Notes under the pieces: generated by a model
What the model saw: only the letters and a program-made list of their open reading frames with translations
What the model was told of the DNA's origin: nothing
Databases searched by the model: none
Part shown: piece by piece, positions 2,045-49,711 of the stretch
Layout of the letters: each line of letters opens with the position of its first letter
How positions within the stretch are numbered: position 1 is the stretch's first letter
Position numbers and translations under genes: made by a program
Virus record (IMG/VR): IMGVR_UViG_2667527228_000001
Location: 1-64,000 of that record
Strand: one strand, 5' to 3'
From: a virus
Taxonomy: Duplodnaviria; Caudoviricetes
Length of the DNA: 64,000 bases

Positions 2045-3265
2045 TTAGGCGGTGCCGAATAGATCGAGCTGATCAGATTCGGCTTGCAGCTCTTGCTGTC
2101 GGGTGATTTCGTGATCGATACGCGCCCGGGCGATCGCCGCGTACTGCTCGTCGATCTCGCAGCCGGTGAACTAGAAACCTTCGCGCATTGCGGCTTTGCC
2201 GGTGCTTCCGCTGCCCATGAATGGATCTAGAACGACGCCGCCGGCCGGTGTCACCAAGCGCAGCAGGTAGGCCATCAGATCGGTGGGCTTGACCGTGGGA
2301 TGACTGTTACCGTTTCGAGCACTCCACTCGGCTGTTTCGCAGTCGCGCATGGTTGCATCCTTGGCGACAGCGGGAGCGTCCGAGCTGAGCAGGCCCTCGT
2401 TTCGGTCTTTGCGGCTGGTTTTGGCGCAGTAGAAGAATCGGGCGGCGCTTCCGCTGTCGAGCCGTCGTGCGCCGGGCTTCATTTGAAAGCCGACAACTCC
2501 TGCATTTTCGTTGTTGGCACTGGCCTCGGTGCCTCGTCCGCGCTTCATGTTGCCGTAAACGTTCTGTCCGGCGCGCTGGGTGTCGCTGGTGCTGGTGGCG
2601 GCGAGTTGTCCGGGCGCATCCGGAAACGCGGCGATGACCTCAGCGCTTCCGTCGTGAATCAAGTTTGCCGGCCACCGGCCGAGATCCGAAGCTTCGGCCG
2701 TACGGGGTATTTTTCCCGACTTGCCCCCGACATAGTTCCCGCCACGCATATCAACGGTGGTCAGTCTGTTCCAGTTCTTTGCCAAGGTCATTGCGTCTGC
2801 GGCGCGCACGCGGCACCCGTCAATGTTCAATGCTCCTGTACCGTGGACCTGGACATTTGCGACCACCGTTCCAGAGAACGGTTTGCGTGCCACAGTGATT
2901 GGCTCCAGCGCTGGCTTCAGTGCCGTGCCCCAACCGTCGTGCTCCCCGTCGAGGTTGTGCGACTTCGGGAATCCGGAGCCGTACACCCAGGCGATCATGT
3001 CGCGGATCTCGAACCCGGCGTCCTCGATGCGGACAGCCATGCGATGCTGGGTGCGAGTACCGGCGAAGGCGAGCAAGTGCCCGCCGGGCTTCAGCACGCG
3101 CAAGCACTCTGCCCACACTTCAGTTGCCGGCACGTCGTAGTCCCATTTCTTTCCCATGAAGGAGATGCCGTACGGTGGGTCAGTCACGACGCTGTCGACG
3201 CTGCTGTCCGGCATTCGCCGTAGGAGCTCCAAGCAATCGCCGACCATGATGGTGTAGTCGCTCAT
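2045..3265 (-). pseudogene. N4-C/N6-A DNA methyltransferase (beta class) interrupted by an amber stop
   Basis: DPPY and DPFMGSGS motifs; in-frame TAG at 2171-2173 is followed by FTGCEIDEQYAAIARARI... to TAA at 2045-2047. Confidence 0.85.
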
Positions 3266-4741: not shown

Positions 4742-5226
4742 CTATTTCCCGTGGTTGGAGTGGTAGCCGTTCTGGCTTTCGAATGATTTACGAGCTGCCG
4801 CCGCATCGAGCAGCGATTGGTATCGACCGAGTGCCAAATAGCGGCCGCCGAGATAGCCGTATGCTCGCCACCATGAGCGCTGATCCCACATGACGCCCGG
4901 CAATCCGGTTGAGTTTGTTCGGTGGAGCCGCTGGTTTCTGGCGTTGTCGATCGCAGTCGCCGCCCGTAGATTCAACCAGCGGTTGTCTGTGCGGTCACCA
5001 TTGATATGGTCGACGCAGTCCGGCACCTCCTGACCCATGAAGGCAAAGGCCATGCGGTGCAGGCTCTGGTACTTCTTGTCGACCATCACGACCAAGTAGC
5101 CATTGGTGGCTTGGTTGCCGCGACCGATCCAGCCCTCGCACTGCCTTGGTCAACGCGCCACGTGAACAGCCCGCTGCCAGGGTCGTAGCTCAGCAACTCT
5201 ACGAGGTAGTCTTGATTTTTGAACAT
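4742..5226 (-). pseudogene. HNH homing endonuclease with a 1-bp frameshift
   Basis: LSYDPGSGLFTWR in one frame, NGYLVV...DHINGDRTDNRWLNLR in another; span is 485 nt. Confidence 0.8.
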
Positions 5227-5338: not shown

Positions 5339-5413
5339 ATGAACAAATGGATAAACCTGATCACTGCCGTTGTCGGACTGATCGACTCGATCATCCGTAT
5401 GGGCTGGCTGTGA
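5339..5413 (+). CDS. 24-aa amphipathic peptide, candidate type I toxin
   Basis: MNKWINLITAVVGLIDSIIRMGWL; GAGG RBS adjoins an upstream inverted repeat. Confidence 0.4.
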   Translation: MNKWINLITAVVGLIDSIIRMGWL

Positions 5414-7019
5414 TCTGCTTGAGGATCCGCTGGCCGATCCAGCGAACGACGGTGACGGCCTTGCTGTTGCCGATCGCCTTGTAGCGCGGCCCGTCTGGGC
5501 ATTCCGCAGCGGGCTTGCCGCGCCAAGGGATCAGCGTGTAGTCGTCGGGCTGACCCTGGAGACGCTCGCACTCGCGGGGGGTGAGGCGGCGAACTGCTGG
5601 GCCACCAACCAACATATCGGCCTCGGTAACCGGATTACTGTTGTTGCGCATGTTTCCGGAGCGCAACGTAGGCGAAAGCTCAGCAACGATGTTTGGCCCC
5701 AACGCCGAGTTCGTGTTGTCCAACTGCTTTCCATAATTGCTGGTAATGGTCTGAGCCACGTCGCGGCAGTGAATATAATTTTGCTGTTGAGCACCTGCCT
5801 CTGCGGCAAGAGTTCCGACTACTTGCCCGTCAGTACCGATGTAGCGAACCTCGCTGCGGCTGTTCTGGGTAAACGCCAGTACCGCATTCTCCTGCCCGTT
5901 GTTTCGGCCCAGGGTGTGGGCTTGTTCAATGCTGATGCAAGGGTCTTGTGTTCCGTGCACTACGAGGTGGCTGTGACCGTGGTTCGCATCCTGGCCTGAG
6001 CAGCCTTGAAGCCGGCCGTAGCTCGCATCAAGTGTCGCGGCAACGCAGGGCACATCGTCGTAGCTGTATCCGCCAGACTTGCGAGCGCCCTCGGCAAGCG
6101 TCGGTGCGACGAAGAACGTCTCGCTTTCCATGTCCATGCGGGTGTCTTTGGCCGTCAGGGTGGCCGCCTGCTCGATCGAGCCGACCAGGCTGTGCCCGCC
6201 GAACGCCGGTATCCCGCCGAACATCGAGACCGCCGGGCCTTCGTCCCCTTCGCAATTTACGCAGCCGTACGGTCCGAGTTCTTCGGCGAAAACTTCTCCG
6301 CATCCGCACTGGAGCGCAGGGCCGAAAGGAGCTGTTCCGGTAACGTCTTGCCCCTGGCCTCGGCGCGGCGCAGTATCCCGGCGCAGGCCTTCTCGCTCAA
6401 AAAGTACCTCGGTGGGATCGAATCCGTCTCGAGCACTTGCGACAACGAACACACGGCGGCGTCGTTGGGCCAGTCCGAAATATTGGGCGTCCAGGACCCG
6501 CCACGCGATTGTTCTTTTGGGTCCATACACACAACCAGCGTTCGGCCATTTTTTCCCTGAAGGCTGCAGTTCGCAGTCTTCCCCAGCAAGCGCGCCAAGA
6601 AAGCATCCGAAGGCGTTCCCTTTGTCACTGAGGACACCTGGGACGTTTTCCCAGACGACAACGCAGGCGGGCTTTCGCTGGCCGGCGCGAACATAGTCAG
6701 TTGCATCTGCAAGCTCCACGTATTTGATGGTGAGGGCGCCGCGCGGGTCGAGCAGACCCTGGCGCATGCCGGCGACGCTGAACGCTTGGCATGGGGTGCC
6801 GCCGACCAGTACGTCGGGTGCGGCGATCTTGCCGGCCAGGACCAGGGCCCCGAGCTTCGTCATGTCGCCGAGGTTCGGCGTGTTCGGGTAATGGTGGGCC
6901 AGCACCGCGCTGGGGAAAGCCTCAATCTCGGCGAACCAGGCGGCTCGCATGCCGAGTGGCTTCCATGCAAGCGTTGCCGCCTCGATGCCGGAGCAGACCG
7001 AGCCGTAAGTGATTTCCAT
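5391..7019 (-). CDS. DNA (cytosine-5) methyltransferase with a long variable region
   Basis: CSGI (motif I), GTPCQ, ENV, QRRRR, RRLTPRECERLQG and GNS motifs. Confidence 0.93.
   Translation of the reverse strand: MEITYGSVCSGIEAATLAWKPLGMRAAWFAEIEAFPSAVLAHHYPNTPNLGDMTKLGALVLAGKIAAPDVLVGGTPCQAFSVAGMRQGLLDPRGALTIKYVELADATDYVRAGQRKPACVVVWENVPGVLSDKGNAFGCFLGALAGEDCELQPSGKKWPNAGCVYGPKRTIAWRVLDAQYFGLAQRRRRVFVVASARDGFDPTEVLFEREGLRRDTAPRRGQGQDVTGTAPFGPALQCGCGEVFAEELGPYGCVNCEGDEGPAVSMFGGIPAFGGHSLVGSIEQAATLTAKDTRMDMESETFFVAPTLAEGARKSGGYSYDDVPCVAATLDASYGRLQGCSGQDANHGHSHLVVHGTQDPCISIEQAHTLGRNNGQENAVLAFTQNSRSEVRYIGTDGQVVGTLAAEAGAQQQNYIHCRDVAQTITSNYGKQLDNTNSALGPNIVAELSPTLRSGNMRNNSNPVTEADMLVGGPAVRRLTPRECERLQGQPDDYTLIPWRGKPAAECPDGPRYKAIGNSKAVTVVRWIGQRILKQITASPYG
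6257..6706 (-). CDS. Nested alternative-frame ORF (EcoHK31I beta-like polypeptide candidate)
   Basis: 149 codons inside the MTase gene, own GGAG RBS, SLSQVLE...RYFLSEKACAGILRRAE. Confidence 0.55.
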   Translation of the reverse strand: MQLTMFAPASESPPALSSGKTSQVSSVTKGTPSDAFLARLLGKTANCSLQGKNGRTLVVCMDPKEQSRGGSWTPNISDWPNDAAVCSLSQVLETDSIPPRYFLSEKACAGILRRAEARGKTLPEQLLSALRSSADAEKFSPKNSDRTAA

Positions 7020-7041
7020 AAGGCTTCCTCGGCGGAGTGGT

Positions 7042-7329
7042 TCAGGTTTTTTCGAATTCGCGAGCGTGAGCGGGGAATTTCAGCCGCTGCTGAATGCCGA
7101 GCATCAGCGTGCTGACCTTGGTGCCTTTGCAGAACACCGTGGCCGGGGGAAGCTTCACGTCGCAGGGCAGCACCTGTTCGCCCTGAGCCAGCGACGCCTC
7201 AACGTGCCGCGCCATGTCCGACCAGACGTGAGACTCAAGGCGAACTTCTGCACGCACAGCCTCGATGATCCACATAGGAAGGGTGACCAGGCGCTCATCG
7301 CGGGAGGCCGGAGATTGTTCTTCGGACAT
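7042..7329 (-). CDS. Hypothetical phage protein
   Basis: GAGGA RBS; in operon. Confidence 0.65.
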   Translation of the reverse strand: MSEEQSPASRDERLVTLPMWIIEAVRAEVRLESHVWSDMARHVEASLAQGEQVLPCDVKLPPATVFCKGTKVSTLMLGIQQRLKFPAHAREFEKT

Positions 7330-7372
7330 AGGGGATCCTCGCCGGCTGGCGTGATTCGTTGAAGGGGACGGG

Positions 7373-8533
7373 TTATTTCTTCGCGTAAGTCTTGGTCAGC
7401 GCCGCGTTTACCGTGTTGCCGCGCTTCAGCACGACATTTGCCAGGGCTGCGCGGTGCTTCTGGCTGTGGCTGGCCTGACTGAGCAGGCCGAAGTAGCTGT
7501 TGGCGGTTTCGCGAAGGTCCTCGGCGGGCGCTGAGGCTGTTCGCTTCAGTGCCTGGGCCAGTGATCGCTTGCGGGTTGTTCGGCGCCATGGCTTGATGAC
7601 GTGGCCCACGAAATCGACGCCTCGATCCACCGGTTGCAGGATGGTCTTCGTCGGGTTCAGCTTGGCGCCCAGGCTGGGAAGGAAGGCTTCGACCTGGGCC
7701 AGCCACTGGTTGAGCTGCTGCGGCGATTCATGCAGGAACACGAAGTCATCGACGTAGCGGACGTAATGCTTGGCGCCGAGCTGGTGCTTGGCGAACTGGT
7801 CCAGCGCGTCGAGGTAGACGTTGGCGAAGAACTGCGACGAAAGATTGCCGATCGGCAGGCCGAGTCGGGCAGGCTGCGCGGTGAGTCGCTTGTGCTGCGG
7901 TACCCGGTTGAACAGGTGGGCCGGACTGCGTACTTCGTAGTCTTCGCGAGGGTCGTGCATCAGGATTTGTTCAGCGAGTGCCAGCCACCATGGCTCGGTG
8001 ATCTTGGCGGCCAGCTGCTGGCGCAGGACTTCTTTGTCGATGGCGACGAAGAAGTTGGCCAGGTCGCACTTCAGGTAGAAGATCGGCTTCGACCAGTTCT
8101 GGCTGGCGCTGCGGATCTTCGCCTCAAGTCGCTTCGCTGCGTACAGCGTGCCGCGCCCAGGAATGCATGCACAACTGTCCGCTATGAAGCTGGCGTAGAA
8201 GCGCGGTGCCACACGGTTGTACAGCAGGTGGTGGACGACGCGATCCCGGAACGCTGCCGCCCAAACCTCGCGGGCTTTCGGTCTGGTGACCACGAAGCAG
8301 ATGGAGCGGCCTAGCCGGTAGGTGCCGGCGATCAGGTCGCTGTGAAGTCCGATCAGGTTCTTTTCCAGATCCATCTCGAAGGCCAATGCGCTGGCGCTAT
8401 TGCGCTTCGTGCGGCGGCAGTCGTAGTAGGCCTGAACAAGCTCGCTGAATGGGTAGGGGCCAACAGTCGAATCTGCGGACGGGGCGGACGCGGAGCTCGT
8501 TGTTCTTGTCGTTGTTGTTCTGATTGCCATCAT
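7373..8533 (-). CDS. DGR reverse transcriptase
   Basis: FRDRVVH, LKCDLANFF, GLPIGNLSSQ, YVRYVDD and GVDFVG motifs; adjacent TR and avd. Start uncertain because it lies inside the TR. Confidence 0.96.
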   Translation of the reverse strand: MMAIRTTTTRTTSSASAPSADSTVGPYPFSELVQAYYDCRRTKRNSASALAFEMDLEKNLIGLHSDLIAGTYRLGRSICFVVTRPKAREVWAAAFRDRVVHHLLYNRVAPRFYASFIADSCACIPGRGTLYAAKRLEAKIRSASQNWSKPIFYLKCDLANFFVAIDKEVLRQQLAAKITEPWWLALAEQILMHDPREDYEVRSPAHLFNRVPQHKRLTAQPARLGLPIGNLSSQFFANVYLDALDQFAKHQLGAKHYVRYVDDFVFLHESPQQLNQWLAQVEAFLPSLGAKLNPTKTILQPVDRGVDFVGHVIKPWRRTTRKRSLAQALKRTASAPAEDLRETANSYFGLLSQASHSQKHRAALANVVLKRGNTVNAALTKTYAKK

Positions 8534-8573
8534 CGAAGTTCATGTTGAATGCGTTGTTGGCGGAGCGCTGCGA
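8469..8573 (-). repeat. DGR template repeat (TR)
   Basis: 105 bp with 10 AAY codons in the VR frame; matches both VRs except at adenines. Confidence 0.97.
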
Positions 8574-8744
8574 CCTATCGTGCTATCTACGTCGCCACAC
8601 CGAAGGCAAAGCCGATCGGCGAGGAAACTGCGCGGGACCTGCGCGGACGCTTTAGACCGTCGGTATCCCTGATGCGCATGGCGGTGACCCAGAGGTCAGC
8701 GGCACGACCAGATTCAATTCGCACAGACCTGAAAGCCGTGACTC

Positions 8745-9101
8745 TCAGGTGGCGGGCGCGGTTGGGGTGGAGCGTTTCCAGGCATTCGCCTGTTTGCCAA
8801 TCGAGGTTGTGACCTCTATTGCATTGGCATGCTGCGGGACGCTGATGAATCGACTTTCTTTGAATAGCCGCATCAAGAACTCGATCACCTGGACCTTTTC
8901 AACCAACAAGGTCAGGTGTGGGCGCTTGTCCGGGGTCGAATTGGCCCGGGCAATCAACATCAGCACGTCGATGCACTCATCGATCACGCGCTTCCCGAGA
9001 GACTGCTTCAGATCTCGGGGTATGTTGCGGGTGAGGTTCGTGGCCATCTGAAGCAGGCCAAGCGAAGCCTTGTAGATTTGCAAGTCCGTGTGCATCGCCA
9101 T
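8745..9101 (-). CDS. avd: DGR accessory variability determinant (four-helix bundle)
   Basis: 118 aa, basic and helical; IPRDLKQSLG...IGKQANAW pattern; lies between the targets and the TR. Confidence 0.88.
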   Translation of the reverse strand: MAMHTDLQIYKASLGLLQMATNLTRNIPRDLKQSLGKRVIDECIDVLMLIARANSTPDKRPHLTLLVEKVQVIEFLMRLFKESRFISVPQHANAIEVTTSIGKQANAWKRSTPTAPAT

Positions 9102-9122
9102 GGGCGCGCTCTCCAAGAGCAA

Positions 9123-9140
9123 CCGGCCGCAAGCGGCCGG
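9123..9140. promoter_or_regulatory. GC hairpin/cruciform downstream of VR1 (DGR homing element)
   Basis: CCGGCCGC-AA-GCGGCCGG perfect inverted repeat 14 nt past the target stop. Confidence 0.75.
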
Positions 9141-9154
9141 ATTAAATAAACGAA

Positions 9155-9775
9155 TTAATCAATCAATTGACTGCGGACGGGGCGGACGCGGAGCTCGATG
9201 ACCTTGCCGAAGCTGTACTGACCGCCACCATCGAAGTGCATGACGAATGCGTCGTTGGCGGAGCGCTGCGAACTCGACCAGTACCAGGTGGGCTTGAAGG
9301 CTTCAGCGCCACCAACCTGGAAGGCTTCCAGCGTGGTCTGTGTTGGCGAATCTTCGGTGTGCAGCAGGCCAACAGGCTCGCTGTTTGGGTTGTCGCCGCT
9401 GCGCCCATACTGCCAGTTCGCTTCCGTGGTCGGTTTGAAGTGGCGGTACTGCAACTCCTGCTGATCGCGTGCCGGGATCGCCCAGTCATCGTAACCACCG
9501 ATGCGCAGTGCCAGAGCCTTCTGAGCCAACTCGCTGCCAGCGGCGGCCATGGCCTCGGTATTGGCCCGGCCATTGGTGAAGCTGTCAGCGCCCTCGATCT
9601 TCTCGCCGTATTTGCCCCAGGCACCGATCAATTCGTGCTCGGCGCCGGCGGTGATGTTCAGATAGCGCTTGCCGGTGTCCGGGTCGCGGGTGATGCCGGA
9701 GAAGAAGCCGCCGCCATAGGGCTGGCCGATTGCGGGGAGGGTCACTACTGGTGCTGCTTGAGCTGCTGCGGTCAT
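9155..9775 (-). CDS. DGR target protein 1 (DUF1566/CLec-like)
   Basis: WAIPARDQ, WYWSSSQ and VRPVR motifs; C-terminal VR1. Confidence 0.92.
   Translation of the reverse strand: MTAAAQAAPVVTLPAIGQPYGGGFFSGITRDPDTGKRYLNITAGAEHELIGAWGKYGEKIEGADSFTNGRANTEAMAAAGSELAQKALALRIGGYDDWAIPARDQQELQYRHFKPTTEANWQYGRSGDNPNSEPVGLLHTEDSPTQTTLEAFQVGGAEAFKPTWYWSSSQRSANDAFVMHFDGGGQYSFGKVIELRVRPVRSQLID
9170..9271 (-). repeat. Variable repeat VR1
   Basis: 15 internal mismatches to TR plus one at the 3' edge, all at TR adenines. Confidence 0.97.
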
Positions 9776-9801
9776 GGGTCTTTCCTCTTTTCGAAGGCAA
9801 C

Positions 9802-9830
9802 AAAAAAGGCGCTGCTGCGCCCGGTGCCGG
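9802..9830 (-). terminator. Hairpin plus U-tract between the two targets
   Basis: CCGGCACCGGGCGC-AGCA-GCGCC-TTTTTT on the minus strand. Confidence 0.5.
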
Positions 9831-9853
9831 ATCAAGAACGAATGAATGAAGGA

Positions 9854-10456
9854 TTAAATGAAGAATCTGCGGACGGGGCGGACGCGGAGCTCGTTGCTCT
9901 TGCCGTAGTTGCCCTGAAGGCCATCACCGAAGAGCATGACGAATGCGCCGTAGGCGGAGCGCTGCGAACTCGACCAGTACCAGCAGTCCTGGGCGAACAC
10001 CTCGGGACAGTTCAGCCAGCCCTGATACAGTTCGGCAGCGGCCGGCAGGAAGAAGTCGCTGTGCCCGTCGGCCGCGTAATCGTCAGCGGCATTTGCCGCA
10101 GGATGATCACCGTCGGCCAGTAGGATCAGGCTGTTTGCGTGGCCATCCGTCTTGCTGGTGGCGCCTGAATCCTTCCCGCGATTGCCCCATTCATGGTTGC
10201 CAACGTCTTTTTCGGCGAAGATCAGGTAGTGGGCGGGAACATCGCCGCGCGCTGAGACGAAACCGCCATTGATGCCGCCTTGGCCCGGCCAGTACTCGCC
10301 GACGGCGGGAATGGCGGAAGGCGCAATCGGCTGAACATTCGCTACCGGTGGCAGCGCCTGGGTGAGCAGGCCGGCGATCAGCAGTTGGGCCATCCGATCG
10401 GACGGTCCCTTTATCTTGAAGTCGTCAATCTTGATTGAAGCTGTTTTGGCTTTCAT
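9854..10456 (-). CDS. DGR target protein 2 (DUF1566/CLec-like)
   Basis: FFLPAAAELY, WYWSSSQ and VRPVR motifs; C-terminal VR2. Confidence 0.92.
   Translation of the reverse strand: MKAKTASIKIDDFKIKGPSDRMAQLLIAGLLTQALPPVANVQPIAPSAIPAVGEYWPGQGGINGGFVSARGDVPAHYLIFAEKDVGNHEWGNRGKDSGATSKTDGHANSLILLADGDHPAANAADDYAADGHSDFFLPAAAELYQGWLNCPEVFAQDCWYWSSSQRSAYGAFVMLFGDGLQGNYGKSNELRVRPVRRFFI
9863..9967 (-). repeat. Variable repeat VR2
   Basis: 15 mismatches to TR, all at TR adenines. Confidence 0.97.
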
Positions 10457-10478
10457 AGTGAAACCTCACAGGGTGAAA

Positions 10479-10790
10479 TTATTCGTCATGGGCGATGCGC
10501 AAGGCTTCGCGGTCGTGGGCGAGTTTCAATTTCCGCGACACGTTTTCGGGTATCACGTATTTGTGTCGCGGCGGGGTGAGCAGGGGAAGGGATCCGCCCG
10601 GGCCAAGGCCGTGCAGGTGGTGAATCATTAGGGTGATGGCCTCGCCCTGTTCCTCGATGCCGCTCCAGGCCATCAGTTCAGCAAGGGCTTGGCGAGTGCC
10701 GGGAAGGCAGTGCAGCCTGATTTCCTCTTCGCCGCGCTCCTTCCTCTTCGCCGAGGCTTTCGCTGAGCGATCCGCATTGCTCTTGGCCAT
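10479..10790 (-). CDS. Hypothetical phage protein
   Basis: GAGG RBS; basic N-terminus; possibly DNA-binding. Confidence 0.7.
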   Translation of the reverse strand: MAKSNADRSAKASAKRKERGEEEIRLHCLPGTRQALAELMAWSGIEEQGEAITLMIHHLHGLGPGGSLPLLTPPRHKYVIPENVSRKLKLAHDREALRIAHDE

Positions 10791-10875
10791 GGCCTGCCTC
10801 TTCAATTCCGTGGGCCGGTATATCCAGCCATGTCTGTCTTCGGCGCTGGCGCACCTGGTTGCTGATGCGCTTCAT
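10678..10875 (-). CDS. Small Arg-rich peptide (MKRISNQVRQRRRQ)
   Basis: Start coupled to the upstream stop; similar N-terminus at 55288-55425. Confidence 0.45.
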   Translation of the reverse strand: MKRISNQVRQRRRQTWLDIPAHGIEEAGHGQEQCGSLSESLGEEEGARRRGNQAALPSRHSPSPC

Positions 10876-11228
10876 GCTGATGCCGGGAAGTCGAGCGAGA
10901 AGTCGGCGATCAACCGCCGGCACAACGTTTCGCTGATTTCCAGATGTCTGCTGGCCTTGTAGCGCGTCATGCCAGCGGCCTTGCACTCCATCAGCTGGGC
11001 GGCCAGCGCCGCTCTGTCCTCATCACCGATGACCCGGCCGCGCTTGCTCTTCTGCGCCTCGATCGTCCGGTAGCCGTAGGCTGGCTTTGGCGCCTGCACG
11101 ACGCCCGGGCTGTCCTTGCCAACGCCGGTCGGAATCAGTTGAGCCTGGCCACCAGAGGCAAAAAAGGCAGCTTTCGCCGCCTCCAATGCACTTTGCCGCT
11201 CAAGGGCTTTTTCGATTGCTGGGTCCAT
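10872..11228 (-). CDS. Hypothetical phage protein with C-terminal HTH
   Basis: FFASGG motif; TRYKASRHLEISE HTH-like. Confidence 0.7.
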   Translation of the reverse strand: MDPAIEKALERQSALEAAKAAFFASGGQAQLIPTGVGKDSPGVVQAPKPAYGYRTIEAQKSKRGRVIGDEDRAALAAQLMECKAAGMTRYKASRHLEISETLCRRLIADFSLDFPASA

Positions 11229-11229
11229 A

Positions 11230-11664
11230 TCAAGATGCTCGTGAGTTGAGGGTGATGCCGTGGTAGCGGGCGATGCGCCGCAGGACAATGCGACCAATGC
11301 CGAGTTGCTCGGCGATTGCCATCTGGCTCATGTTGGCCTTGGCCATCCGCCGAATGCGCGGTACCAGCTTCGCCTCTTCCTTGCGGCGCTCCTCCAGGGT
11401 GGCACTGGTGGGCGTGGCGAACTTGATGCCGTACAGCGCGGCGATGTAGTTGATGGTTCGGGTGGATTTGCCCAGGCCCTTGGCTGCGGCGCAGACGCCG
11501 AGTGTGGTGTAACCACGAATCGCGTCGACCAGGTCGGCATCGATTGGCGGTACCGCCACACATAAAGGGTCTGGATAGGCCCTGAAGGAATCGGCGATGA
11601 CCTGCACCTGGCCGCCGGAGGCTTCGAACTTACTGATGGCTTGCTGGAGTTCGGCAGGGGTCAT
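11230..11664 (-). CDS. HTH DNA-binding phage protein
   Basis: FEASGG motif; SQMAIAEQLGIG HTH. Confidence 0.7.
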   Translation of the reverse strand: MTPAELQQAISKFEASGGQVQVIADSFRAYPDPLCVAVPPIDADLVDAIRGYTTLGVCAAAKGLGKSTRTINYIAALYGIKFATPTSATLEERRKEEAKLVPRIRRMAKANMSQMAIAEQLGIGRIVLRRIARYHGITLNSRAS

Positions 11665-11671
11665 GGCAGCC

Positions 11672-12235
11672 TCACTTGATCCGGATCGAACTGTCGCCGC
11701 GCTCCAAGTGTGCGTAGGCAGGCTCTTCGATGAGTTCATGTTCCGCGTCTTCGCCGGCGGCCATGCGCTTGCGCACTGCTTCGTTGTGCTCGCGGATTTC
11801 CTTGAGTTTCGCGGCAATCGCGGTCTTGTCCGGGGCGATGCTGGACTTCACGACCGTCAGTTCATCTGGAACGGCGTCCTCGTTGTCGACGATAACTTTC
11901 TCGCGGCCGGCGGCAAGGGTGATGGTGAACAGTGGTCGCTTGATCGTCTTGATGTTCGCGGCTTCCATGTTCCGGCGCAGGTAGTCGCTGATCTGCGTGA
12001 CACTGTTCGACTTGATGCGCTTGAGTTCGGCCAAGCGCTCGATCTCGTTGTCGATGGCGGTTACGTCGCTTTCGATGTTCCGGCGCAGCATGACGATGTT
12101 GTCGGCCTTCTCGTTGAAGTCGCCGGCGATCTCGTCCATGGCGTGCTGCAGGGCCTCTTTCAGGCCCTCATCATCGGTGTCGGCCATGGCCTGAAGTTCG
12201 GCGAGCTTGCCGGTGAGTGCGTAGAGCTGGGTCAT
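11672..12235 (-). CDS. Siphovirus Gp157-family protein
   Basis: LYALT N-terminus, coiled coil, PDKTAI...AHLERGDSSIRIK C-terminus; next to the recombinase. Confidence 0.85.
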   Translation of the reverse strand: MTQLYALTGKLAELQAMADTDDEGLKEALQHAMDEIAGDFNEKADNIVMLRRNIESDVTAIDNEIERLAELKRIKSNSVTQISDYLRRNMEAANIKTIKRPLFTITLAAGREKVIVDNEDAVPDELTVVKSSIAPDKTAIAAKLKEIREHNEAVRKRMAAGEDAEHELIEEPAYAHLERGDSSIRIK

Positions 12236-12969
12236 GCTGCGTTCTCCTTACCAGCATTGAGCGATGCTTGTCGCTCTTCAAATGCGCGAGTTATCCGGGC
12301 GATGAAAGTCGGCTCATTGCGCCGAGTCGCCTCCCGGATGTATTTGACGTTCAGCATTTTCAGCTCATGACTAGTCACGGCCTTGCCGATTGTTTCGACT
12401 GCTGAGTTGAGCCAATCCAGACGCTCCTGCTTCTGACGCAGGATCTCGGCATCCTTGTCTGCGGCTTGCTCGATGGCCTGCTCCTCTTTGAGCTGGTCGA
12501 CGTAGGTCTGGTCGTCAAACAGGCCAAGGAACACGTCGGCGCTGAAGCCGAGCATCGACAGGGCCTTCTTGATGGCGTCGGTCAGCGATTTCTTTGGCGC
12601 CTCGCCATCAGTCGTCATGCCGTAGCTGGTCTTGTACTGATAGCGGGTGCAGCCATACTGCTCGATCTCGCCGCGCTGGCCGTCCTGCATAAACCAAAGG
12701 GCAATTTTTACCGTGTGCCCGATCTCGCGACCGATGCATGCGCGCTTGTCGCCTTCGCCGGTGAAGATTTCGTGCCCCTCATCGAAGCGTTCTTCGATAA
12801 TCTTCCAGCCCCAGCCGATGCCGACCGGACCAAACAGCTCGGTGGCCTTCATGACCATCGCGGTACCGCTCAGGCTGGTAATGTCCTGCCCGTTGACCTT
12901 GGCTTTCTTGGTGAACCGGGTGTCGGTCTTCTCGACCTGGCCCCAGATCCGCATATTCTGTTCGGACAT
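12232..12969 (-). CDS. Single-strand annealing recombinase (Rad52/Sak-like)
   Basis: FGPVGIGWG and KKSLTDAIKKALSMLG motifs; recombination module position. Confidence 0.65.
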   Translation of the reverse strand: MSEQNMRIWGQVEKTDTRFTKKAKVNGQDITSLSGTAMVMKATELFGPVGIGWGWKIIEERFDEGHEIFTGEGDKRACIGREIGHTVKIALWFMQDGQRGEIEQYGCTRYQYKTSYGMTTDGEAPKKSLTDAIKKALSMLGFSADVFLGLFDDQTYVDQLKEEQAIEQAADKDAEILRQKQERLDWLNSAVETIGKAVTSHELKMLNVKYIREATRRNEPTFIARITRAFEERQASLNAGKENAA

Positions 12970-12982
12970 GATTGCTCTCCAG

Positions 12983-13288
12983 TTACAGGCCGGTGCGCGC
13001 GCCATCCAGCTTTTGAGGCCAGAAGTCGAAGGCGAATGCGGAAAGGGCCATGTGCATTTTGTTGGCTTGCTCGCGACCTGGTCGGCGCAGTTCGTCTTGC
13101 AGGAAGCACCACTGCATCTCGCCGAAGCCGTACGCGTGCGGGCTGGATGCCTCGATGTGATTGGCGAGCGACTCGAAGAAGTCAGCCTGTTGCTGGGTGT
13201 CCATCCCCCAAAATGCTTTGGCGAGAATTTCCGGCGTGATCTCTACGGCAAAGTCGGAAACGGTTACTTCAACCGGTGAATTTTCCAT
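12983..13288 (-). CDS. Hypothetical phage protein
   Basis: AAGGA RBS; 101 aa. Confidence 0.7.
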   Translation of the reverse strand: MENSPVEVTVSDFAVEITPEILAKAFWGMDTQQQADFFESLANHIEASSPHAYGFGEMQWCFLQDELRRPGREQANKMHMALSAFAFDFWPQKLDGARTGL

Positions 13289-15508: not shown

Positions 15509-16216
15509 TCAATGAAATCCGCCAGACCAGAAGACCCGGCCGAGTACGACAAGCTCCTGATCCTGCACCTGCTGTGCCGTGTACTCCTCGTCTGGGTGCT
15601 CGTCACGATTGAAGCTGCGCAACCGAAGGCCACCACCAGGGAGTCGGTACAGCTGCTTCACCCGTAGCTGACCAGCGTGGTCAATGGCGTACATGTCGCC
15701 GTCTAGAACGCGCGTATTGCCTGTGTCCACCGCCACGGTAGAGCCATTGCGCAATACCGGCTCCATGCTATTCCCCGCGACCGTTACGCATTTCGCGCTT
15801 CCCGGATCGACACCCTTGTTTCTGAGGCTTATCCGGCCAAACCGCAGCTTACGGTTCGAGGATTCCTGAACTGCCGTCCTGCCGCAGCCAGCCGACAACT
15901 CTACTTCCTTGAGGAACGGCACATAGACCTCGTCGTCTTCCAGCGGGGTGCTGTCATCCCAGACATCGATGGGGCCGAGCATTTCTGCGTTGGAATCAAT
16001 GGTTGGTCTTGCAGGGGCATCCCCAGTAACGAGAAACCCAACTGTGGTTGATAAGGCCAAGGCTATCTCATCCAGCCGCCGGCCGCGCGGAACGGACACT
16101 TCAGACTCCCATTTCTGAACAGCCTGAGGGGATACAGAAAGGCGCCTCGCCAGCTCTGACTGGTTCAAGCCTGCTTGTTCTCTTTTGCGCGCAATGCGCT
16201 TGCCTAATGTGCTCAT
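15509..16216 (-). CDS. cI: CI-like repressor (XRE HTH + S24 peptidase)
   Basis: LNQSELARRLSVSPQAVQKWE; AG cleavage site; GNSMEP and VKQL catalytic Ser/Lys. Confidence 0.93.
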   Translation of the reverse strand: MSTLGKRIARKREQAGLNQSELARRLSVSPQAVQKWESEVSVPRGRRLDEIALALSTTVGFLVTGDAPARPTIDSNAEMLGPIDVWDDSTPLEDDEVYVPFLKEVELSAGCGRTAVQESSNRKLRFGRISLRNKGVDPGSAKCVTVAGNSMEPVLRNGSTVAVDTGNTRVLDGDMYAIDHAGQLRVKQLYRLPGGGLRLRSFNRDEHPDEEYTAQQVQDQELVVLGRVFWSGGFH

Positions 16217-16227
16217 GCGCCAATCAT

Positions 16228-16320
16228 GCAACCCGCAGTTGTGGTTTTCACTGTGAATGTAAGTTGTGGTTTTTCCAATCGTGCGATAACCTCTGGTTGT
16301 AACTGTAACTTTGAGGTTCA
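16228..16320. promoter_or_regulatory. OR operators and pR/pRM region
   Basis: GCAACCCGCAGTTGT and ATAACCTCTGGTTGT between divergent cI and cro. Confidence 0.65.
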
Positions 16321-16322
16321 AA

Positions 16323-16526
16323 ATGGAAGAGCTACCGATCTGTAAGGCAGCCAAGGCTGCTGGCGGCCAATCCGCCCTTGCTCGCCTCCTCAAGGTCACT
16401 CCTCAGGCGGTGCAGAAAATGTGCGCCTCTGGGCGTGTGCCTGCCGAGCGAGTTCTCGAAATTGAAAAGGCTACTGGCGTCTCCCGCCATGAGCTTCGCC
16501 CTGATATCTACCCCGTTGCCGCCTAA
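16323..16526 (+). CDS. cro: Cro/YdaS-like regulator
   Basis: GGQSALARLLKVTPQAV...ELRPDIY. Confidence 0.88.
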   Translation: MEELPICKAAKAAGGQSALARLLKVTPQAVQKMCASGRVPAERVLEIEKATGVSRHELRPDIYPVAA

Positions 16527-43063: not shown

Positions 43064-44359
43064 ATGTCACTGAAGCTTAACGAACGCTACCCGGGTCGAT
43101 TCAACAACCCATCCGCTGACTACCCACAGGGCTATTTCAAGAACAGAACAAGCCCCACCGCGAAGGACGGTTCGTATCTTGAGCAAGATTGGGCAAACGA
43201 TAAGGAAGGTTTCTTTCAGTCCTTGATTTCTGTGGCAGGGTTAGTCCCAAACGGATTGGTCGACAAGGTCGGTGCATCTCAGTATTACGATGCCTTGCTG
43301 AACGTTCTGTACGCCGCAGCCCGGAAAACCCCTGTTCTAAACGACACCGGAACTGCTGGCGTCTACGCAGCCGCGAACACCCCGGCACTTACTGCATTGC
43401 CGGCCACCGGCTATATGCAACGGGTGAAGATCGCCAACCTTAACCCAGGGGCGTCCACCTACGCACCAGACGGCCTTGCCGCTAAACCGATTTATGGCCT
43501 TGGCCTTCAGCCACTTCAGGGCGGTGAGCTTCCCGCCGGTGTGGCAGTTCTTATGTACCTGGTGCAAGCCGGCGTAAACGGCGGTAACGGGGCGTGGATT
43601 ATTATCGAGTCCCTTGGCGGGGCCCAACAAGTTGCGGCGGCTACCAAGTCCCAGCATGCCATGCAGTTCGGCCAAGCCACTGGACGGCTGTTGCGCACCA
43701 CGATCTACATCAACAACGGCGGTACCCTGCAAGCATCGGTCGATGGCGGTGCGTTCGCCAACGTCAGCTCAACCTTCACACCACACCCATTGGCGTTAAC
43801 CGCCGAAGGTGAGGTCCAAGGGGGTGGTGGAGGTGGGGGGAATGCCGCATCCACTGGCGCTAGCCAAGTGTCCGCCGGAGCTGGCGGTGCCGCTGGAGGA
43901 TACGCGCGAAAGCGTGGAGCGATCGCCTCATTCGCTGGACAGACTATTTCGGTTGGCGCCGGTGGCTCCGCATCAGTAGGCGGGTCCAGTGCTATCGGGT
44001 TATTGGTCTCCGCTTCAGGTGGCGGGCTTGGTCAAACCGGCGCAGCAGGCTCAGCCACGAATAATCCCTTCGGCGGATCAAATGGAGGGGTTGGGACTGG
44101 CGGGGACTTAAACGCATTGGGTGGCGGTGGAATATACGCGCTCTATGCCACTGCTCCTATTAGCGGAAAGGGCGGGGCTTCTCTATTCGGTGATGGTGGC
44201 CCACCTACAGGCGGTCCGCCAACCACAGGCAGCCCAGGGAACGCAGCTGTAAGTTATGGCGCTGGTGGTTCTGGAGCGGCTAATGGTGCCTCAGTGGCCA
44301 CGAATAGTTTTGGCGGTGCTGGAAAAGGTGGCTTAGTAATTATTCGGGAGTACGCATAA
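43064..44359 (+). CDS. Tail fibre protein with Gly-rich C-terminus
   Basis: Position after the baseplate genes; GGGGGG and GAGG repeats. Confidence 0.8.
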   Translation: MSLKLNERYPGRFNNPSADYPQGYFKNRTSPTAKDGSYLEQDWANDKEGFFQSLISVAGLVPNGLVDKVGASQYYDALLNVLYAAARKTPVLNDTGTAGVYAAANTPALTALPATGYMQRVKIANLNPGASTYAPDGLAAKPIYGLGLQPLQGGELPAGVAVLMYLVQAGVNGGNGAWIIIESLGGAQQVAAATKSQHAMQFGQATGRLLRTTIYINNGGTLQASVDGGAFANVSSTFTPHPLALTAEGEVQGGGGGGGNAASTGASQVSAGAGGAAGGYARKRGAIASFAGQTISVGAGGSASVGGSSAIGLLVSASGGGLGQTGAAGSATNNPFGGSNGGVGTGGDLNALGGGGIYALYATAPISGKGGASLFGDGGPPTGGPPTTGSPGNAAVSYGAGGSGAANGASVATNSFGGAGKGGLVIIREYA

Positions 44360-44836: not shown

Positions 44837-45967
44837 TCATTCCGCCACAGTTTTTGCCTTCTGAGTTCTGCCGATTCGAATTATTCCGTTCAGGTAATCA
44901 CGGCAGGGCTTTTCTACGGCCAGATGTAATCCAATCGACATCGTTATTATCAACCCAAGAAAAAACAATTCAAATGCTATGTTCGTTAAAAGTGAGCCGG
45001 TTACTTTGCTGTCGAATATCGGCCGTGCGATAAGATGGATCATATAGAAAGCGAACGAAGATTCTCCCAGGAACACTATCTTTTTGTTGGAGAGCGCAAG
45101 GCTCATCAGGCTTTTCTGATCCATAGCCAACGAAAAAATAAGTAAGGCGAAAACCAAGGCGTAGGCAGCGTCCCAACTATAAGCAGAGTAGAAGAGATCC
45201 TTTGAGGTCATTATCAAAAAAACGGCAGCGATGCTTACTAGTGATATCAACCGCCATACTGGTTTTTTATCGCCAGACTTCGCGTGCCTGCAAAAAAATA
45301 TGGCAGCAAGCACGCCGAGGCCAAAGTCAAATACTCGGAACAATGGAAAATTATAAAGCCAACGGTGTGCAGAGTCTGGATTGGAAATCGCAAGATCATT
45401 CCGCGGCGGTAATGACAGGTAGGCTGCAAGAGAAAATTGAACAATCACAAACAGTATCGCAAGGCCAATTATTCTGAATTTAGATTTCATAATCCCTATT
45501 TTTGTAAAAAAAACCATGATAAATGGAAATGAAATATAAAGGAAAAACTCTACACTTATGCTCCACGCAGGGCTATTAAGACCGCCGATCACTGGTATGT
45601 CTGGGTGCCAAGCCTGTAATGCGAACAAGTAAATAAGGATTGGGCCGTCGGCACCTTGTAGAAACCAAACGAAAGCCATTGTTATAAAATATACTGGGTA
45701 TACCCTGCTAAATCTCGCCCATAAATATTTCGGAGTTTCGGCTACTGGGCTGATTTCAAATCTATTTGAGTAGTTATAAGCAATGATGAAGCCAGACAGA
45801 ACGAAAAAGAAAGTAACCCCAGAGTAGCCTGATGCAAAAAATATGCTGAAGCTGTCATTAACGCCGGCAATTGGATAGTGCGAAAAGAAAACCATCAATG
45901 CCGCGAAGAAGCGTAGGCCAGTAAGAGCCGGAATAGCTTCGATTCGGTTTAATGCTGTCGGCATCAT
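44837..45967 (-). CDS. Acyltransferase family 3 (OafA/YrhL-like) moron
   Basis: LTGLRFFAA..H, FFVLSGF, RFSRVYP, WSISVE, GESSF; multi-TM; AT-rich. Confidence 0.9.
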   Translation of the reverse strand: MMPTALNRIEAIPALTGLRFFAALMVFFSHYPIAGVNDSFSIFFASGYSGVTFFFVLSGFIIAYNYSNRFEISPVAETPKYLWARFSRVYPVYFITMAFVWFLQGADGPILIYLFALQAWHPDIPVIGGLNSPAWSISVEFFLYISFPFIMVFFTKIGIMKSKFRIIGLAILFVIVQFSLAAYLSLPPRNDLAISNPDSAHRWLYNFPLFRVFDFGLGVLAAIFFCRHAKSGDKKPVWRLISLVSIAAVFLIMTSKDLFYSAYSWDAAYALVFALLIFSLAMDQKSLMSLALSNKKIVFLGESSFAFYMIHLIARPIFDSKVTGSLLTNIAFELFFLGLIITMSIGLHLAVEKPCRDYLNGIIRIGRTQKAKTVAE

Positions 45968-47696: not shown

Positions 47697-47702
47697 GTGC
47701 CT

Positions 47703-47733
47703 GCGCAAAACCCGCGCAAAACTGGCGCAAAAC
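47703..47733. repeat. Three GCGCAAAAC direct repeats (integrase arm-type sites)
   Basis: Exact 11-bp period, next to att and the int stop. Confidence 0.65.
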
Positions 47734-48848
47734 TACCCGGTGATTTCGCTGATATTCAGATCCGGAATTGCCTCGGACCAGATGACTTCTGCGTGGTCCC
47801 GCTGGTAGTTTTTGGTCATGCTCTCGCTGGCATGTCCGGCGATCTTCTGCCCGTCCTTTCCGGCTTTCTGATACAGGTGCAGCGACAATGCTCGCACTTC
47901 GTGGAAGCCCGGCATTTCTTCTTCCTTCCATCCCTTGTAACAATCCGCCGCCTCCCGAGCCTCTTTGAAGGCCCGTGTCAAATATCGCTCTTCAACCTGC
48001 GTCCAATGATCCTTCGTCTGCGCCTGTTTCTGTTTTTTGCGGTCAGGCCGGCGGTGGACCAGGTACGGGGAGACGATGTCATCCCGGCACCGGCTAATCA
48101 CGGTCTGGAGTTCATCGGTCACTTTGAACCGTATCCACGCCGCATCACTGGCCTTGGCCGTCTTCTGCTGCACCACATACAGAAATCCCTCCCGAACCCC
48201 ATCGAATCGCATGTTGAGGATATCTGTGCGGCGCTGCGCGGTGATCAGGGCCAGATCGATAGCGTTCTGCAGCCAGGCCGGCGACTTCTCCCGAATAGCT
48301 TTCAAGCCCTCGATGGTGTGCCGCTTGCGCTGCTTCTTCTCGATCCGGTTAATGGTGCTGGCAGCCGGGTTGTCTGGGCACAACCCCTTCGCTGCGGCAT
48401 GGTTGAATATGTCGATCAGTAGGGCGCGGCACTGGTTCGCCGTGCGCGGGGTGAGGGCGTCCAGCATCTCCGCGATCATGCGGATCGTGATCTGGTCCAC
48501 GGCCTTGCCTTCGAAGTGCTTCCGAAAGCGCCGGAAGTGCACCGCATACAAGCCCAAGGTGCCCTTGGCCAACTCCCGCGGCGGAAGGACGTCGCGCTCG
48601 TAAGTGTCGAGAAAACCGGTGAACAGGTCTGATGTGTTGCCCATCACAGAGCCAACCAGGTCGGCGCCACGCATGAATTCAAGATTCAGCTGTCTCGCGG
48701 CATCAATGGCTTTGAGGCGGTCGGCGCCGAACGGAAACCACTTCCCGTCGGTTGGCCGCCGGTAGCGATAGGTCGAGCGCCGCGCGTCGAAGTACAGATT
48801 CTGCGGAAGTCCCTTGTTCGCAGGGTTGCGCGGCCGTGGCACCATCAT
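47733..48848 (-). CDS. int: Lambda-type integrase with arm-binding domain
   Basis: TAQRR, FHEVR, AGH, NY motifs. Confidence 0.93.
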   Translation of the reverse strand: MMVPRPRNPANKGLPQNLYFDARRSTYRYRRPTDGKWFPFGADRLKAIDAARQLNLEFMRGADLVGSVMGNTSDLFTGFLDTYERDVLPPRELAKGTLGLYAVHFRRFRKHFEGKAVDQITIRMIAEMLDALTPRTANQCRALLIDIFNHAAAKGLCPDNPAASTINRIEKKQRKRHTIEGLKAIREKSPAWLQNAIDLALITAQRRTDILNMRFDGVREGFLYVVQQKTAKASDAAWIRFKVTDELQTVISRCRDDIVSPYLVHRRPDRKKQKQAQTKDHWTQVEERYLTRAFKEAREAADCYKGWKEEEMPGFHEVRALSLHLYQKAGKDGQKIAGHASESMTKNYQRDHAEVIWSEAIPDLNISEITG

Positions 48849-49057
48849 GCGGCTCCTTTCAATACCATTGCGACCAGGTCGTTGCCATTCGAGCGGCTGA
48901 ATGCGTTCCAGTCAACGTACCAGAGTTTGCCGATCTGCTCGCCCGGCACCTGGCCGTTGCGTATGTGGTTGCGGATTGCCTGCGAGCAGAGCGGAGTGCC
49001 GCCTCTGCCCCAGCGCCGGCGTTGAAACTCGCTGATCTTGATCAGTTCTTTTTTCAT
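48845..49057 (-). CDS. xis: Excisionase-like protein
   Basis: IRNGQVPGEQIGKLWYVD; coupled to int. Confidence 0.7.
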   Translation of the reverse strand: MKKELIKISEFQRRRWGRGGTPLCSQAIRNHIRNGQVPGEQIGKLWYVDWNAFSRSNGNDLVAMVLKGAA

Positions 49058-49093
49058 TGGGTGCTCCATGCCGCGCGTGGCGACAGTGGGTGG

Positions 49094-49711
49094 TTATTCG
49101 GTGGCTTTTGCGATCGCGGCCCGGGCTTTCGATATCTCGGCGAGTTCGCGTTCATGCTCGGGGGTTGTGTACTTGAACTCGTTTGCCAGCAGAGTCCAAC
49201 GCTCAATGGCGAACTCAAGGGCCGAGACAAGCTTTTCCCGTTGGTTCTCTAGTTTCTTCAGCGCCAGGCGGATCTGGTCGGCGTCTTCCGCCAATTCATA
49301 AGCCATGATTTCGAAGTGTTCGGCAGGCTCCCAAGGTGAGGGGATAACGTTCGTTACCCAGTCATGCCAGTGTTCAACGCTTTCACCTTGAGCGATCCGT
49401 TCCTGCTTTATACGCTCGCCCATATCGCGCAGCTCATGTGCTCTCTGTTCGGCATCTTCCTTATTAAGGCAGGGGTACTCTTCACCCGGGCCGACGCTAT
49501 GGATTGCCCAAAGCTCAACCTTCGGCTCCGCCAGTACCTGTCGGAAAACGCAGACCTCCTGACAGAGTGAGGGGCCACCCTGGGCAATATCTGGATGGCT
49601 TTCCAGCAAGATCAGCGCCCGCTCGACACTGTTTCGGTCGAGGGTAATGACCTCGGCAGCCGGCGGAGGCGGTGCGGTCAAGGCTTCGATGATTCGTTCT
49701 ATTCCGGACAT
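49094..49711 (-). CDS. Hypothetical phage protein
   Basis: 205 aa; GAGGA RBS. Confidence 0.7.
   Translation of the reverse strand: MSGIERIIEALTAPPPPAAEVITLDRNSVERALILLESHPDIAQGGPSLCQEVCVFRQVLAEPKVELWAIHSVGPGEEYPCLNKEDAEQRAHELRDMGERIKQERIAQGESVEHWHDWVTNVIPSPWEPAEHFEIMAYELAEDADQIRLALKKLENQREKLVSALEFAIERWTLLANEFKYTTPEHERELAEISKARAAIAKATE

Follow-up and report, generated by a model that had tools for sequence, protein, structure and literature searches.

Why would a temperate phage hypermutate two small proteins whose genes lie far from its tail fiber? The question is raised by a diversity-generating retroelement (DGR) in the provirus record IMGVR_UViG_2667527228_000001, of which we analyzed a stretch of 64,000 nt (hereafter the window; the complete record has 87,735 bases). 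Read from PHROG and Pfam scans, the prophage is a Pseudomonas-type, myovirus-type temperate phage with a lambdoid layout. Its minus strand carries, in order, two target genes (T2 and T1), the accessory gene avd, an RT-15 RNA motif, a template repeat (TR), and a reverse transcriptase (RT) gene; for the genes and TR, open reading frame (ORF) and profile evidence bears out the order given in a first-pass annotation of the same DNA. The reading that we favor, with a probability of roughly 0.55, is that of a functional DGR that travels as a mobile module and whose targets are early, non-virion proteins that bind ligands inside the cell.

A search for repeats in the window returned a single family of three direct 143-nt copies with spacings of 698 and 696 nt. 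On the minus strand, TR (8469–8573) aligns without gaps to 9167–9271 and 9863–9967, which contain the variable regions (VRs) of T1 and T2, respectively. All 15 mismatches between VR2 and TR over 105 nt fall on TR adenines, as do all 15 in the first 101 nt of VR1, which carries an extra A-to-T change at nucleotide 102. Because the last 3 nt diverge from TR, the homology of VR1 ends at 9170. Given the 32 adenines in the 105-nt TR, the hypergeometric probability that 15 of 15 mismatches fall on adenine is 1.0e-9. Ten AAY codons of TR are in frame with both targets. Alignment therefore reproduced the repeat coordinates, substitution counts, and AAY codons from which a two-target DGR had originally been proposed. 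A GC-rich 26-nt element at the 3′ end of the repeats occurs as three exact, identical copies in the window, compared with zero expected from 100 shuffles. A GC-rich element of this kind and a hairpin that follows the VR count as target-recognition elements of DGRs; the role of the hairpin is reported to have been described by Guo et al. in 2011. In the complete provirus record, TR matches only itself, VR1, and VR2, and the Lcl_C profile matches only T1, T2, and TR. Hence, there is no third target, and the tail fiber (43064–44359), in which the first-pass annotation had likewise seen no TR match, is not one either.

The RT matches Pfam RVT_1 (E = 4.4e-17; 62.9 bits, cut-off 29.6), contains YVDD, and is 31% identical to Brt of phage BPP-1 over 332 amino acids (E = 3e-42), an alignment that covers the IGxLxSQ and Y[VM]DD stretches. 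The motif IGxxxSQ is a hallmark of DGR RTs. NCBIfam holds no DGR-RT model, and its matches to the RT all lie far below their cut-offs. Avd matches Pfam bAvd (E = 2.6e-11; 44.4 bits, cut-off 40) and NCBIfam DivGenRetAVD (E = 9.3e-13; 48.4 bits, below the cut-off of 80); BLASTP found no similarity to BPP-1 Avd. The RT-15 RNA is full-length, scores 182.4 bits (gathering score, 82; E = 1.1e-45), and occupies the same place in six of six cultured relatives with an RT. It was the only RNA motif found in 7000–11000 at E ≤ 0.1. RF03022 (Phage_DGR RNA) was not matched there, whereas the same search does find it in BPP-1, 3′ of TR. The family of the window thus differs from BPP-1 in having RT-15 (RF03018) 5′ of TR and, since the ATG of the RT lies inside TR, no spacer between TR and the RT. 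This contrast in RNA layout is based on the window (8469–8761, minus strand) and locus L103 (2750–2882). RNAalifold applied to TR plus 155 nt downstream in seven sequences yielded a weak consensus of −11.8 kcal/mol, which leaves a spacer-like structure unsupported. The presence of RT-15 5′ of TR, with no conserved structure predicted 3′ of it, raises the question of how cDNA synthesis is primed without a BPP-1-type spacer. With all its parts intact, the sequence of the cassette suggests that it is still functional.

Scanning IMG/VR with the RT returned 215 relatives, and 80 of these loci, with an RT at least 86% identical, were compared further. TR is present in 79 of the 80, VR1 in 77, VR2 in 73, and a remote third VR (VR3) in 19. 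Of the mismatches to the TR of the same locus, TR adenines account for 1035 of 1088 in VR1, 1021 of 1046 in VR2, and 278 of 311 in VR3; for the adjacent VRs, this corresponds to 95–98%. Distinct sequences number 22 among 79 TRs, but 71 among 77 copies of VR1 and 66 among 73 of VR2. Entropy reaches 1.41 and 1.36 bits at A positions versus 0.21 and 0.18 bits at the others. The same pattern is seen in 55 proteins of the T2 family: the 19 TR codons whose first or second base is A show an entropy of 1.88 bits, compared with 0.16 bits for the 16 remaining VR codons and 0.90 bits outside the VR. The first-pass annotation held that a lack of A-specific VR variation in relatives would mean inactivity; the clear A-specific variation found favors activity instead. 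Outside the VRs, the target scaffolds are under purifying selection, with a median ratio of nonsynonymous to synonymous substitution (dN/dS) of 0.25 for T1 and 0.30 for T2 (138 and 146 usable pairs, respectively, of 150 sampled). A hairpin with a mismatch-free stem of 6 bp or more and a 4-nt loop is found at the VR1 offset in 71 of 77 related loci versus 6 of 79 after TR; by the same definition, it follows VR2 in 15 of 73 loci and VR3 in 3 of 19. One TR codon, AAG (Lys), can be turned into TAG by adenine mutagenesis; it corresponds to codon 186 of T2 (9854–10456). Lys is nearly invariant in this column (0.36 bits in 55 homologues), which implies selection against TAG variants.

Two pairs of loci, L069/L089 and L033/L035, reveal that diversification has been active recently in close relatives of the window (RT 89–91% identical). 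Within each pair, TR is identical and the target scaffolds, of 504 and 498 nt, show zero differences. VR1 differs at 20 positions in L069/L089 and at 19 in L033/L035, VR2 differs at 16 and 13, and 66 of these 68 differences are at TR adenines. Zero scaffold change alongside 68 VR differences indicates that the family diversified both targets very recently. The members of each pair have only a nearly identical segment of 3.4–4.6 kb, the cassette, in common; their phage backbones differ. The cassette therefore moves between phages as a module. In both pairs, the two contig names bear the same genome number, and the sequences suggest exchange of the cassette by recombination between co-resident prophages. 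None of the 80 loci has a scaffold more than 88% identical to that of the window; the evidence for VR turnover thus comes from other lineages of the family. No sequencing run contained at least half of the window's words (the best share was 0.27), and relatives' contigs (Logan) from four runs break at the repeated 26-nt element. T2 and T1 are full-length in three loci (L010, L012, and L013) and in phage Medea1, where avd and the RT are deleted or fragmentary. At locus L080, which lies on the same contig as L011, the VRs are almost identical to TR (1 and 4 mismatches); its targets may have been overwritten recently without mutagenesis or newly acquired. The third VR of L045, about 6.3 kb upstream of TR, has 40 mismatches, just 20 of them at A, and its ORF ends in a peptide resembling the RT-frame translation of TR. 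This third target is probably frameshifted and decaying.

What kind of protein is being diversified? We place the start of T1 at ATG 9775 (stop, 9155) because in relatives the upstream stretch of the longer ORF runs in a different frame. An AlphaFold2 model of T1, built on an alignment of 56 sequences picked for a length of about 200 amino acids among 150 listed representatives, has a predicted local distance difference test score (pLDDT) of 96.0 and a predicted template-modeling score of 0.91. Its best match in the PDB is the C-terminal domain of Legionella Lcl (8q4e; E = 2.7e-4); a Bacteroides fimbrial protein ranks next, ahead of weak matches to C-type lectin domains. A search of the PDB by sequence yielded only a weak match to 8q4e. 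Pfam PF07603 (Lcl_C) scores 27.0 bits with T1 and 21.3 bits with T2, against a gathering cut-off of 34.9. In a precomputed table, this domain is present in many close homologues, and longer relatives score 39–87 bits. T1 comprises little beyond the lectin domain: in 57 family members, a conserved GG motif starts 14–35 residues from the N-terminus. T2 begins with a module of ~50 amino acids, predicted to form a β-hairpin and a helix (pLDDT 80–88 for residues 1–30), followed by a Pro-rich linker. The T2 model is poor overall (pLDDT 53.1); its alignment held 55 sequences, the query and 54 of 120 listed hits, out of 874 family members at E ≤ 1e-3. The 120 listed members are all 196–205 amino acids long, and the named ones are from Pseudomonas. 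In a search limited to proteins of near length, residues 1–52 of T2 were found only in T2-family proteins of 196–203 amino acids (19 of 19 hits).

By simple rules, neither T1 nor T2 has a lipobox, a twin-arginine translocation (Tat) motif, or a 19-residue window above 1.6 on the Kyte–Doolittle scale, and no lipobox was detected in 57 T1-family or 55 T2-family members. These tests agree with the earlier remark that the targets have no evident signal peptide or transmembrane segment. Virion proteins lack a signal peptide as well, so this feature does not separate virion from non-virion proteins. Judged from sequence and model, T1 and T2 are stand-alone, soluble DUF1566 lectin-fold proteins that probably stay in the cytoplasm. 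Ten longer relatives of T1, picked among the 278–798-amino acid entries of the 150 listed (P0123, P0124, P0126, P0132–P0134, P0138, and P0163 among them), consist of tandem Lcl_C or of fn3 plus Lcl_C, and none contains a recognizable tail domain. Two Lcl_C stretches occur in seven of these ten, with fn3 additionally in two; such two-domain fusions may hint that the adjacent T2 and T1 work together.

The genomic position of the cassette is consistent across the family members examined. It lies on the leftward arm that runs from CI to the integrase in the window and in six of six annotated cultured phages with an RT (Cruim01, Magia, Haboob, phPA-G, vB_E192a, and QDWS), and this holds for siphoviruses and myoviruses alike in every context examined. 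Among the 79 IMG/VR loci, 22 have an integrase homologue 2.3–7.6 kb downstream on the same strand. Seven virion-gene markers gave one match within 10 kb, a baseplate-wedge homologue at one locus (+9952, other strand); the markers are the window's own proteins only, which makes the absence of structural genes a weak negative in divergent phages. Flanking genes vary, with the 108-amino acid gene upstream of T2 in 32 of the 79 loci, Gam plus exonuclease in 7, and a C5 methylase in 6. Orphan methylases adjoin the cassette in the window, Cruim01, Haboob, vB_E192a, QDWS, and Medea1 and are more distant in phPA-G; together with Gam in the window, they are neighbors of the anti-restriction or host-takeover kind. 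The placement originally described for the window, between recombination and methylase genes and about 33 kb from the fiber, was confirmed: Gam and exonuclease lie on one side, methylase, HNH, and integrase genes lie on the other, and the fiber is 32.6 kb away. No sigma-70-like promoter was predicted in 6800–12400, where 1.4 would be expected by chance, and T2 starts 22 nt past the preceding gene. Thus, the cassette looks like part of a long leftward operon, which by analogy with lambdoid architecture would be early.

The cassette was also recovered by blastn from phage SC_8_H2H8_2017, from the six cultured phages named above, and from others; the family spans Pseudomonas, Burkholderia, and Shewanella phages. 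Self-comparison revealed three A-biased VRs in Cruim01, three in Magia, and two in Haboob, and tblastn places the RTs of these phages and of IMG/VR locus L008 at 67–89% identity to that of the window. Cruim01, whose RT is 89% and T1 69% identical to the window's, belongs to the siphoviruses; it encodes a tape measure, a major tail protein, and a 1093-amino acid fiber, and no homologue of the window's sheath or fiber was found in it. All six resemble the window in gene order, RT-15, leftward-arm position, and two or three small targets. The window differs from them in having two adjacent targets and no remote third, and the targets of Magia are shorter (120–155 amino acids). Third targets in relatives are paralogues of 160–232 amino acids located 3.3–9.5 kb upstream, towards CI. 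Given so widespread a family, the arrangement is less exceptional than the first-pass annotation suggested. Moreover, a potential DGR whose targets lie in "relatively short reading frames" was already named in the Magia announcement, the authors of which considered adaptation or a change of host range (PMC7883833).

Stand-alone DUF1566 proteins, 31–69% identical to T1, are encoded by D3 (orf68), FBPa42, Medea1, and PA5oct (EST35_0104). They share the fold, size, and early or leftward location of the targets: in D3, the gene next to cI on its left is orf68, the FBPa42 copy lies on the left arm, and Medea1 keeps a T2/T1 pair at the same site. These proteins differ from T1 and T2 in having no RT, Avd, or TR nearby, so that the equivalents of their variable regions are fixed. 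The protein from PA5oct, a jumbo lytic phage, has 163 amino acids, is 43% identical to T2 over 120 amino acids, and is encoded in the terminal repeat. According to the PA5oct paper, the repeat genes gp34–gp105 are mostly early, and only gp39, gp48, and gp51 among them are structural (PMC7318152). At least eight jumbo lytic phages of Pseudomonas, namely PA5oct, Callisto, 30-2, 30-3, Deifobo, Cassandra, Ettore, and Paride, encode small DUF1566 homologues, all annotated as hypothetical (L017 2992–3483; hits H38–H48).

These observations lead to a model in which TR RNA would be reverse-transcribed with random bases opposite adenines, as in BPP-1. The resulting cDNA would replace the last ~34 codons of each target, guided by the common GC-rich 3′ element. 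By calculation, the ten AAY and three GAY codons permit ~15^10 × 4^3, or ~4e13, protein variants per target. The cassette would constitute a mobile module of the leftward arm in temperate phages with different virion types, and the targets would be made from the leftward early operon and, most likely, not be built into the virion. Inside the infected or induced cell, they could then serve as binders that evolve to match a variable protein or glycan; candidate ligands are a host factor, a defense component, or a protein of a rival phage. The conserved arm position, the same cassette alongside unrelated tails, the bare lectin domain of T1, and the PA5oct homologue all point, if circumstantially, to non-virion targets, and we consider this part of the model reasonably likely. 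Proteins that had to fit one particular tail would hardly be expected to move so easily between phages with different tails. More tentatively, the targets might be the first proteins made after infection or induction and form, in the cytoplasm, an antibody-like repertoire of two or three soluble lectin-fold proteins directed against variable host defense proteins or competing phages. An anti-defense role is speculation prompted by the neighboring orphan methylases and Gam. The interpretation originally attached to this locus is partly supported: the DGR is real, its family is active, and its place on the early arm is conserved, whereas the targets are only plausibly non-virion proteins and the anti-defense function is a hypothesis.

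Could the targets instead serve adsorption? T1 and T2 might be small adhesins that join the fiber, baseplate, or capsid after assembly and thereby vary host range in trans, a BPP-1-like switch that we regard as unlikely, although several observations weigh for it and against intracellular binders. To our knowledge, all experimentally characterized phage DGRs target receptor-binding proteins. When compared with viral models, T1 matches two kinds of protein: small stand-alone DUF1566 proteins, one of them from phage D3, and long fiber-like proteins (with S74 peptidase, collagen repeats, or a "tail fiber" label) at whose ends DUF1566 domains sit. The N-terminal module and Pro-rich linker of T2, like the ~45-amino acid module in the third targets of relatives, could serve as docking elements. 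The verdict on export signals comes from simple rules rather than a dedicated predictor, and a position on the early arm is no proof of early-only expression. A homologue in PMBT3 lies behind lysozyme and lysis genes, an ambiguous context. The link to PA5oct has its own weak points in that EST35_0104 is equated with gp104 by locus tag and that the paper calls "most," not all, of gp34–gp105 early. Host-range alteration is also what the Magia authors proposed in the text cited above. Against such a switch stand the leftward-arm position in every context examined, with the fiber 32.6 kb away in the window, and the occurrence of near-identical cassettes in a siphovirus and in myoviruses that share neither sheath nor fiber. 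Beyond its lectin fold, T1 contains no other domain, and all 19 proteins of near length that matched the N-terminal module of T2 belong to the T2 family. The structural proteins that the PA5oct paper names for the repeat do not include the T2 homologue.

Diversified cytoplasmic lectins might, on the other hand, be made in the lysogen, where they would bind proteins of superinfecting phages and provide an exclusion or immune repertoire. Here the analogue is lambda rexAB, located beside cI. Exclusion genes are common on the left arms of temperate phages, and D3 orf68 is located near CI on the same strand, as is the third target in 19 relatives. However, neither target has an effector domain, and PADLOC matched 0 of 10 proteins (T1, T2, and eight neighbors). 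The lack of a predicted promoter for an autonomous cassette is weak evidence in the same direction. Because lytic phages carry homologues in their early region, a role in infection or induction is favored over protection of the lysogen. A published DGR-based immunity hypothesis (PMC10053308) counts in favor of lysogen protection, a reading that seems to us improbable at this locus. That the cassette in the window's own prophage is an inactive relic with purely historical VR differences is very improbable: several relatives have lost avd and RT, but here the RT ORF with YVDD, Avd, full RT-15, A-rich TR, identical 26-nt elements, and VR1 hairpin are all intact, and close relatives diversified both VRs with zero scaffold change.

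Intracellular binders made early would set this family apart from the DGRs described so far. The cassette resembles that of BPP-1 (mtd-avd-TR-brt) in the order of target, avd, TR, and RT, in adenine-specific TR-to-VR differences, in the C-terminal location of the VR within a lectin-fold target, in the GC-rich 3′ element of VR and TR, and in the hairpin after VR1. The targets differ: Mtd is a 381-amino acid tail-fiber tip protein encoded beside tail genes, whereas the window has two (in some relatives, three) stand-alone DUF1566 targets, of 200–206 amino acids in the window, on the leftward arm, which show no BLASTP similarity to Mtd. A survey by Wu et al. describes a category "d" (DUF1566) in which about half of the targets are short single-domain proteins, its example being LdtA of Legionella, a surface lipoprotein (PMC5758913). 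The LdtA DGR shares a DUF1566/CLec2-type variable domain with the window, and the best structural match of T1 is the Lcl C-terminal domain; it differs in that no lipobox was recognized in T1, T2, or any of 112 aligned relatives. In the preprint of Roux et al., clade 3 unites the Legionella DGR with DGRs encoded by prophages, the PC_00009 targets of which are uncharacterized, and Pseudomonas is one of three genera that together make up 48% of the DGR contig affiliations at genus level; our likening of the cassette to clade 3 is by target class, not by placement in an RT tree. In the Toutatisvirus "tentaclins," one TR likewise serves two targets, and the targets persist after loss of the DGR (bioRxiv 10.1101/2024.10.15.618418). 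There, however, the targets have DUF6273 and Ig-like domains, are encoded next to tail genes, and are interpreted as receptor-binding proteins.

Our literature search found no experimental test of DGR function in Magia, Cruim01, Haboob, phPA-G, vB_E192a, or QDWS, and the Cruim01 paper does not mention a DGR. It also returned no paper on a phage DGR with early or intracellular targets, no work on RT-15 in DGRs or on a layout with RT-15 before TR, and no description of early-arm placement, independence of tail type, or modular exchange between prophages. The element is thus a member of a catalogued DGR class, while its biological reading and RNA architecture appear to be undescribed.

Table 1. 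The DGR cassette, its neighbors, and genes of the second prophage in the window
Feature	Position	Strand	Evidence or remark
RT (DGR reverse transcriptase, 386 aa)	7373–8533	−	RVT_1 profile; ATG inside TR
TR (template repeat)	8469–8573	−	32 A/105 nt; 10 AAY codons in target frame
RT-15 RNA motif (RF03018)	8571–8761	−	directly 5′ of TR; overlaps last 17 nt of avd
avd (Avd accessory protein, four-helix bundle)	8745–9122	−	Pfam bAvd
GC-rich hairpin, 4-nt loop, ~30 nt past VR1	9123–9140	−	conserved in relatives
T1 (target 1, 206 aa, single DUF1566/Lcl_C C-type-lectin-like domain)	9155–9775	−	phrog_4245, E 6.7e-34
VR1 (C-terminal 34 codons of T1)	9170–9271	−	15 A-site substitutions + 1 at edge
Short hairpin, 4-nt loop, then T-run, ~45 nt past VR2	9807–9822	−	weakly conserved
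T2 (target 2, 200 aa: ~50-aa N-terminal module, then DUF1566 domain)	9854–10456	−	phrog_4245, E 8.4e-31
VR2 (C-terminal codons of T2)	9863–9967	−	15/15 substitutions at TR adenines
108-aa protein, function unassigned, 22-nt gap before T2	10479–10805	−	phrog_5439, E 8.8e-40
Mu Gam-like protein	11672–12235	−	phrog_253, E 9.2e-42
Exonuclease (early recombination gene)	12232–13005	−	phrog_7838, E 1.5e-99
CI-like repressor, head of leftward arm	15509–16399	−	phrog_4, E 9.3e-54
C5 methylase, downstream of RT	5391–7019	−	PHROG/Pfam scans
HNH	4742–5095	−	PHROG/Pfam scans
Methyltransferase	2171–3265	−	PHROG/Pfam scans
Integrase	1–1197	−	PHROG/Pfam scans
Tail fiber	43064–44359	+	~32.6 kb from DGR
Second prophage: lambda-type integrase	47733–48848	−	
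Second prophage: C5 methylase	51858–52781		
Second prophage: DnaB helicase	59240–60637		
Second prophage: further integrase-family gene	60447–62138		

The plus strand of the prophage encodes O and DnaC-like replication proteins followed by terminase, portal, capsid, sheath, baseplate, fiber, and lysis genes, up to ~47.1 kb (features with coordinates are listed in Table 1). An Acyl_transf_3 acyltransferase gene (44837–45967, minus strand) lies in a low-GC patch (47.5%) between the tail-fiber chaperone and the endolysin, on the strand opposite to theirs, and is probably an O-antigen-modifying lysogenic-conversion moron. This surface-related cargo adjoins the tail fiber, in contrast to the DGR targets. 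Right past the lysis genes begins a second, tandem prophage (47700–64000 of the window), which also encodes DUF2303; the 87.7-kb provirus record therefore probably represents two phages.

As far as we know, mechanistic and functional knowledge of phage DGRs comes entirely from receptor-binding proteins. The DUF1566-target class of Proteobacterial prophages, listed as "uncharacterized" in surveys, is large (215 IMG/VR relatives), recently active, and modular, and it is placed consistently among early, anti-restriction-type genes rather than tail genes. The question of what its targets do is directly testable, as cultured phages with the same cassette exist; their hosts are P. syringae (Cruim01), P. 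aeruginosa (Haboob and phPA-G), and B. cenocepacia (Magia). If the targets are non-virion proteins, targeted hypermutation would evolve intracellular binders, which would extend DGRs to a new field and might supply natural binders that can be programmed. Should they indeed form an intracellular repertoire, they would provide the first known case of a DGR that serves a phage in an arms race within the cell and not in adsorption.

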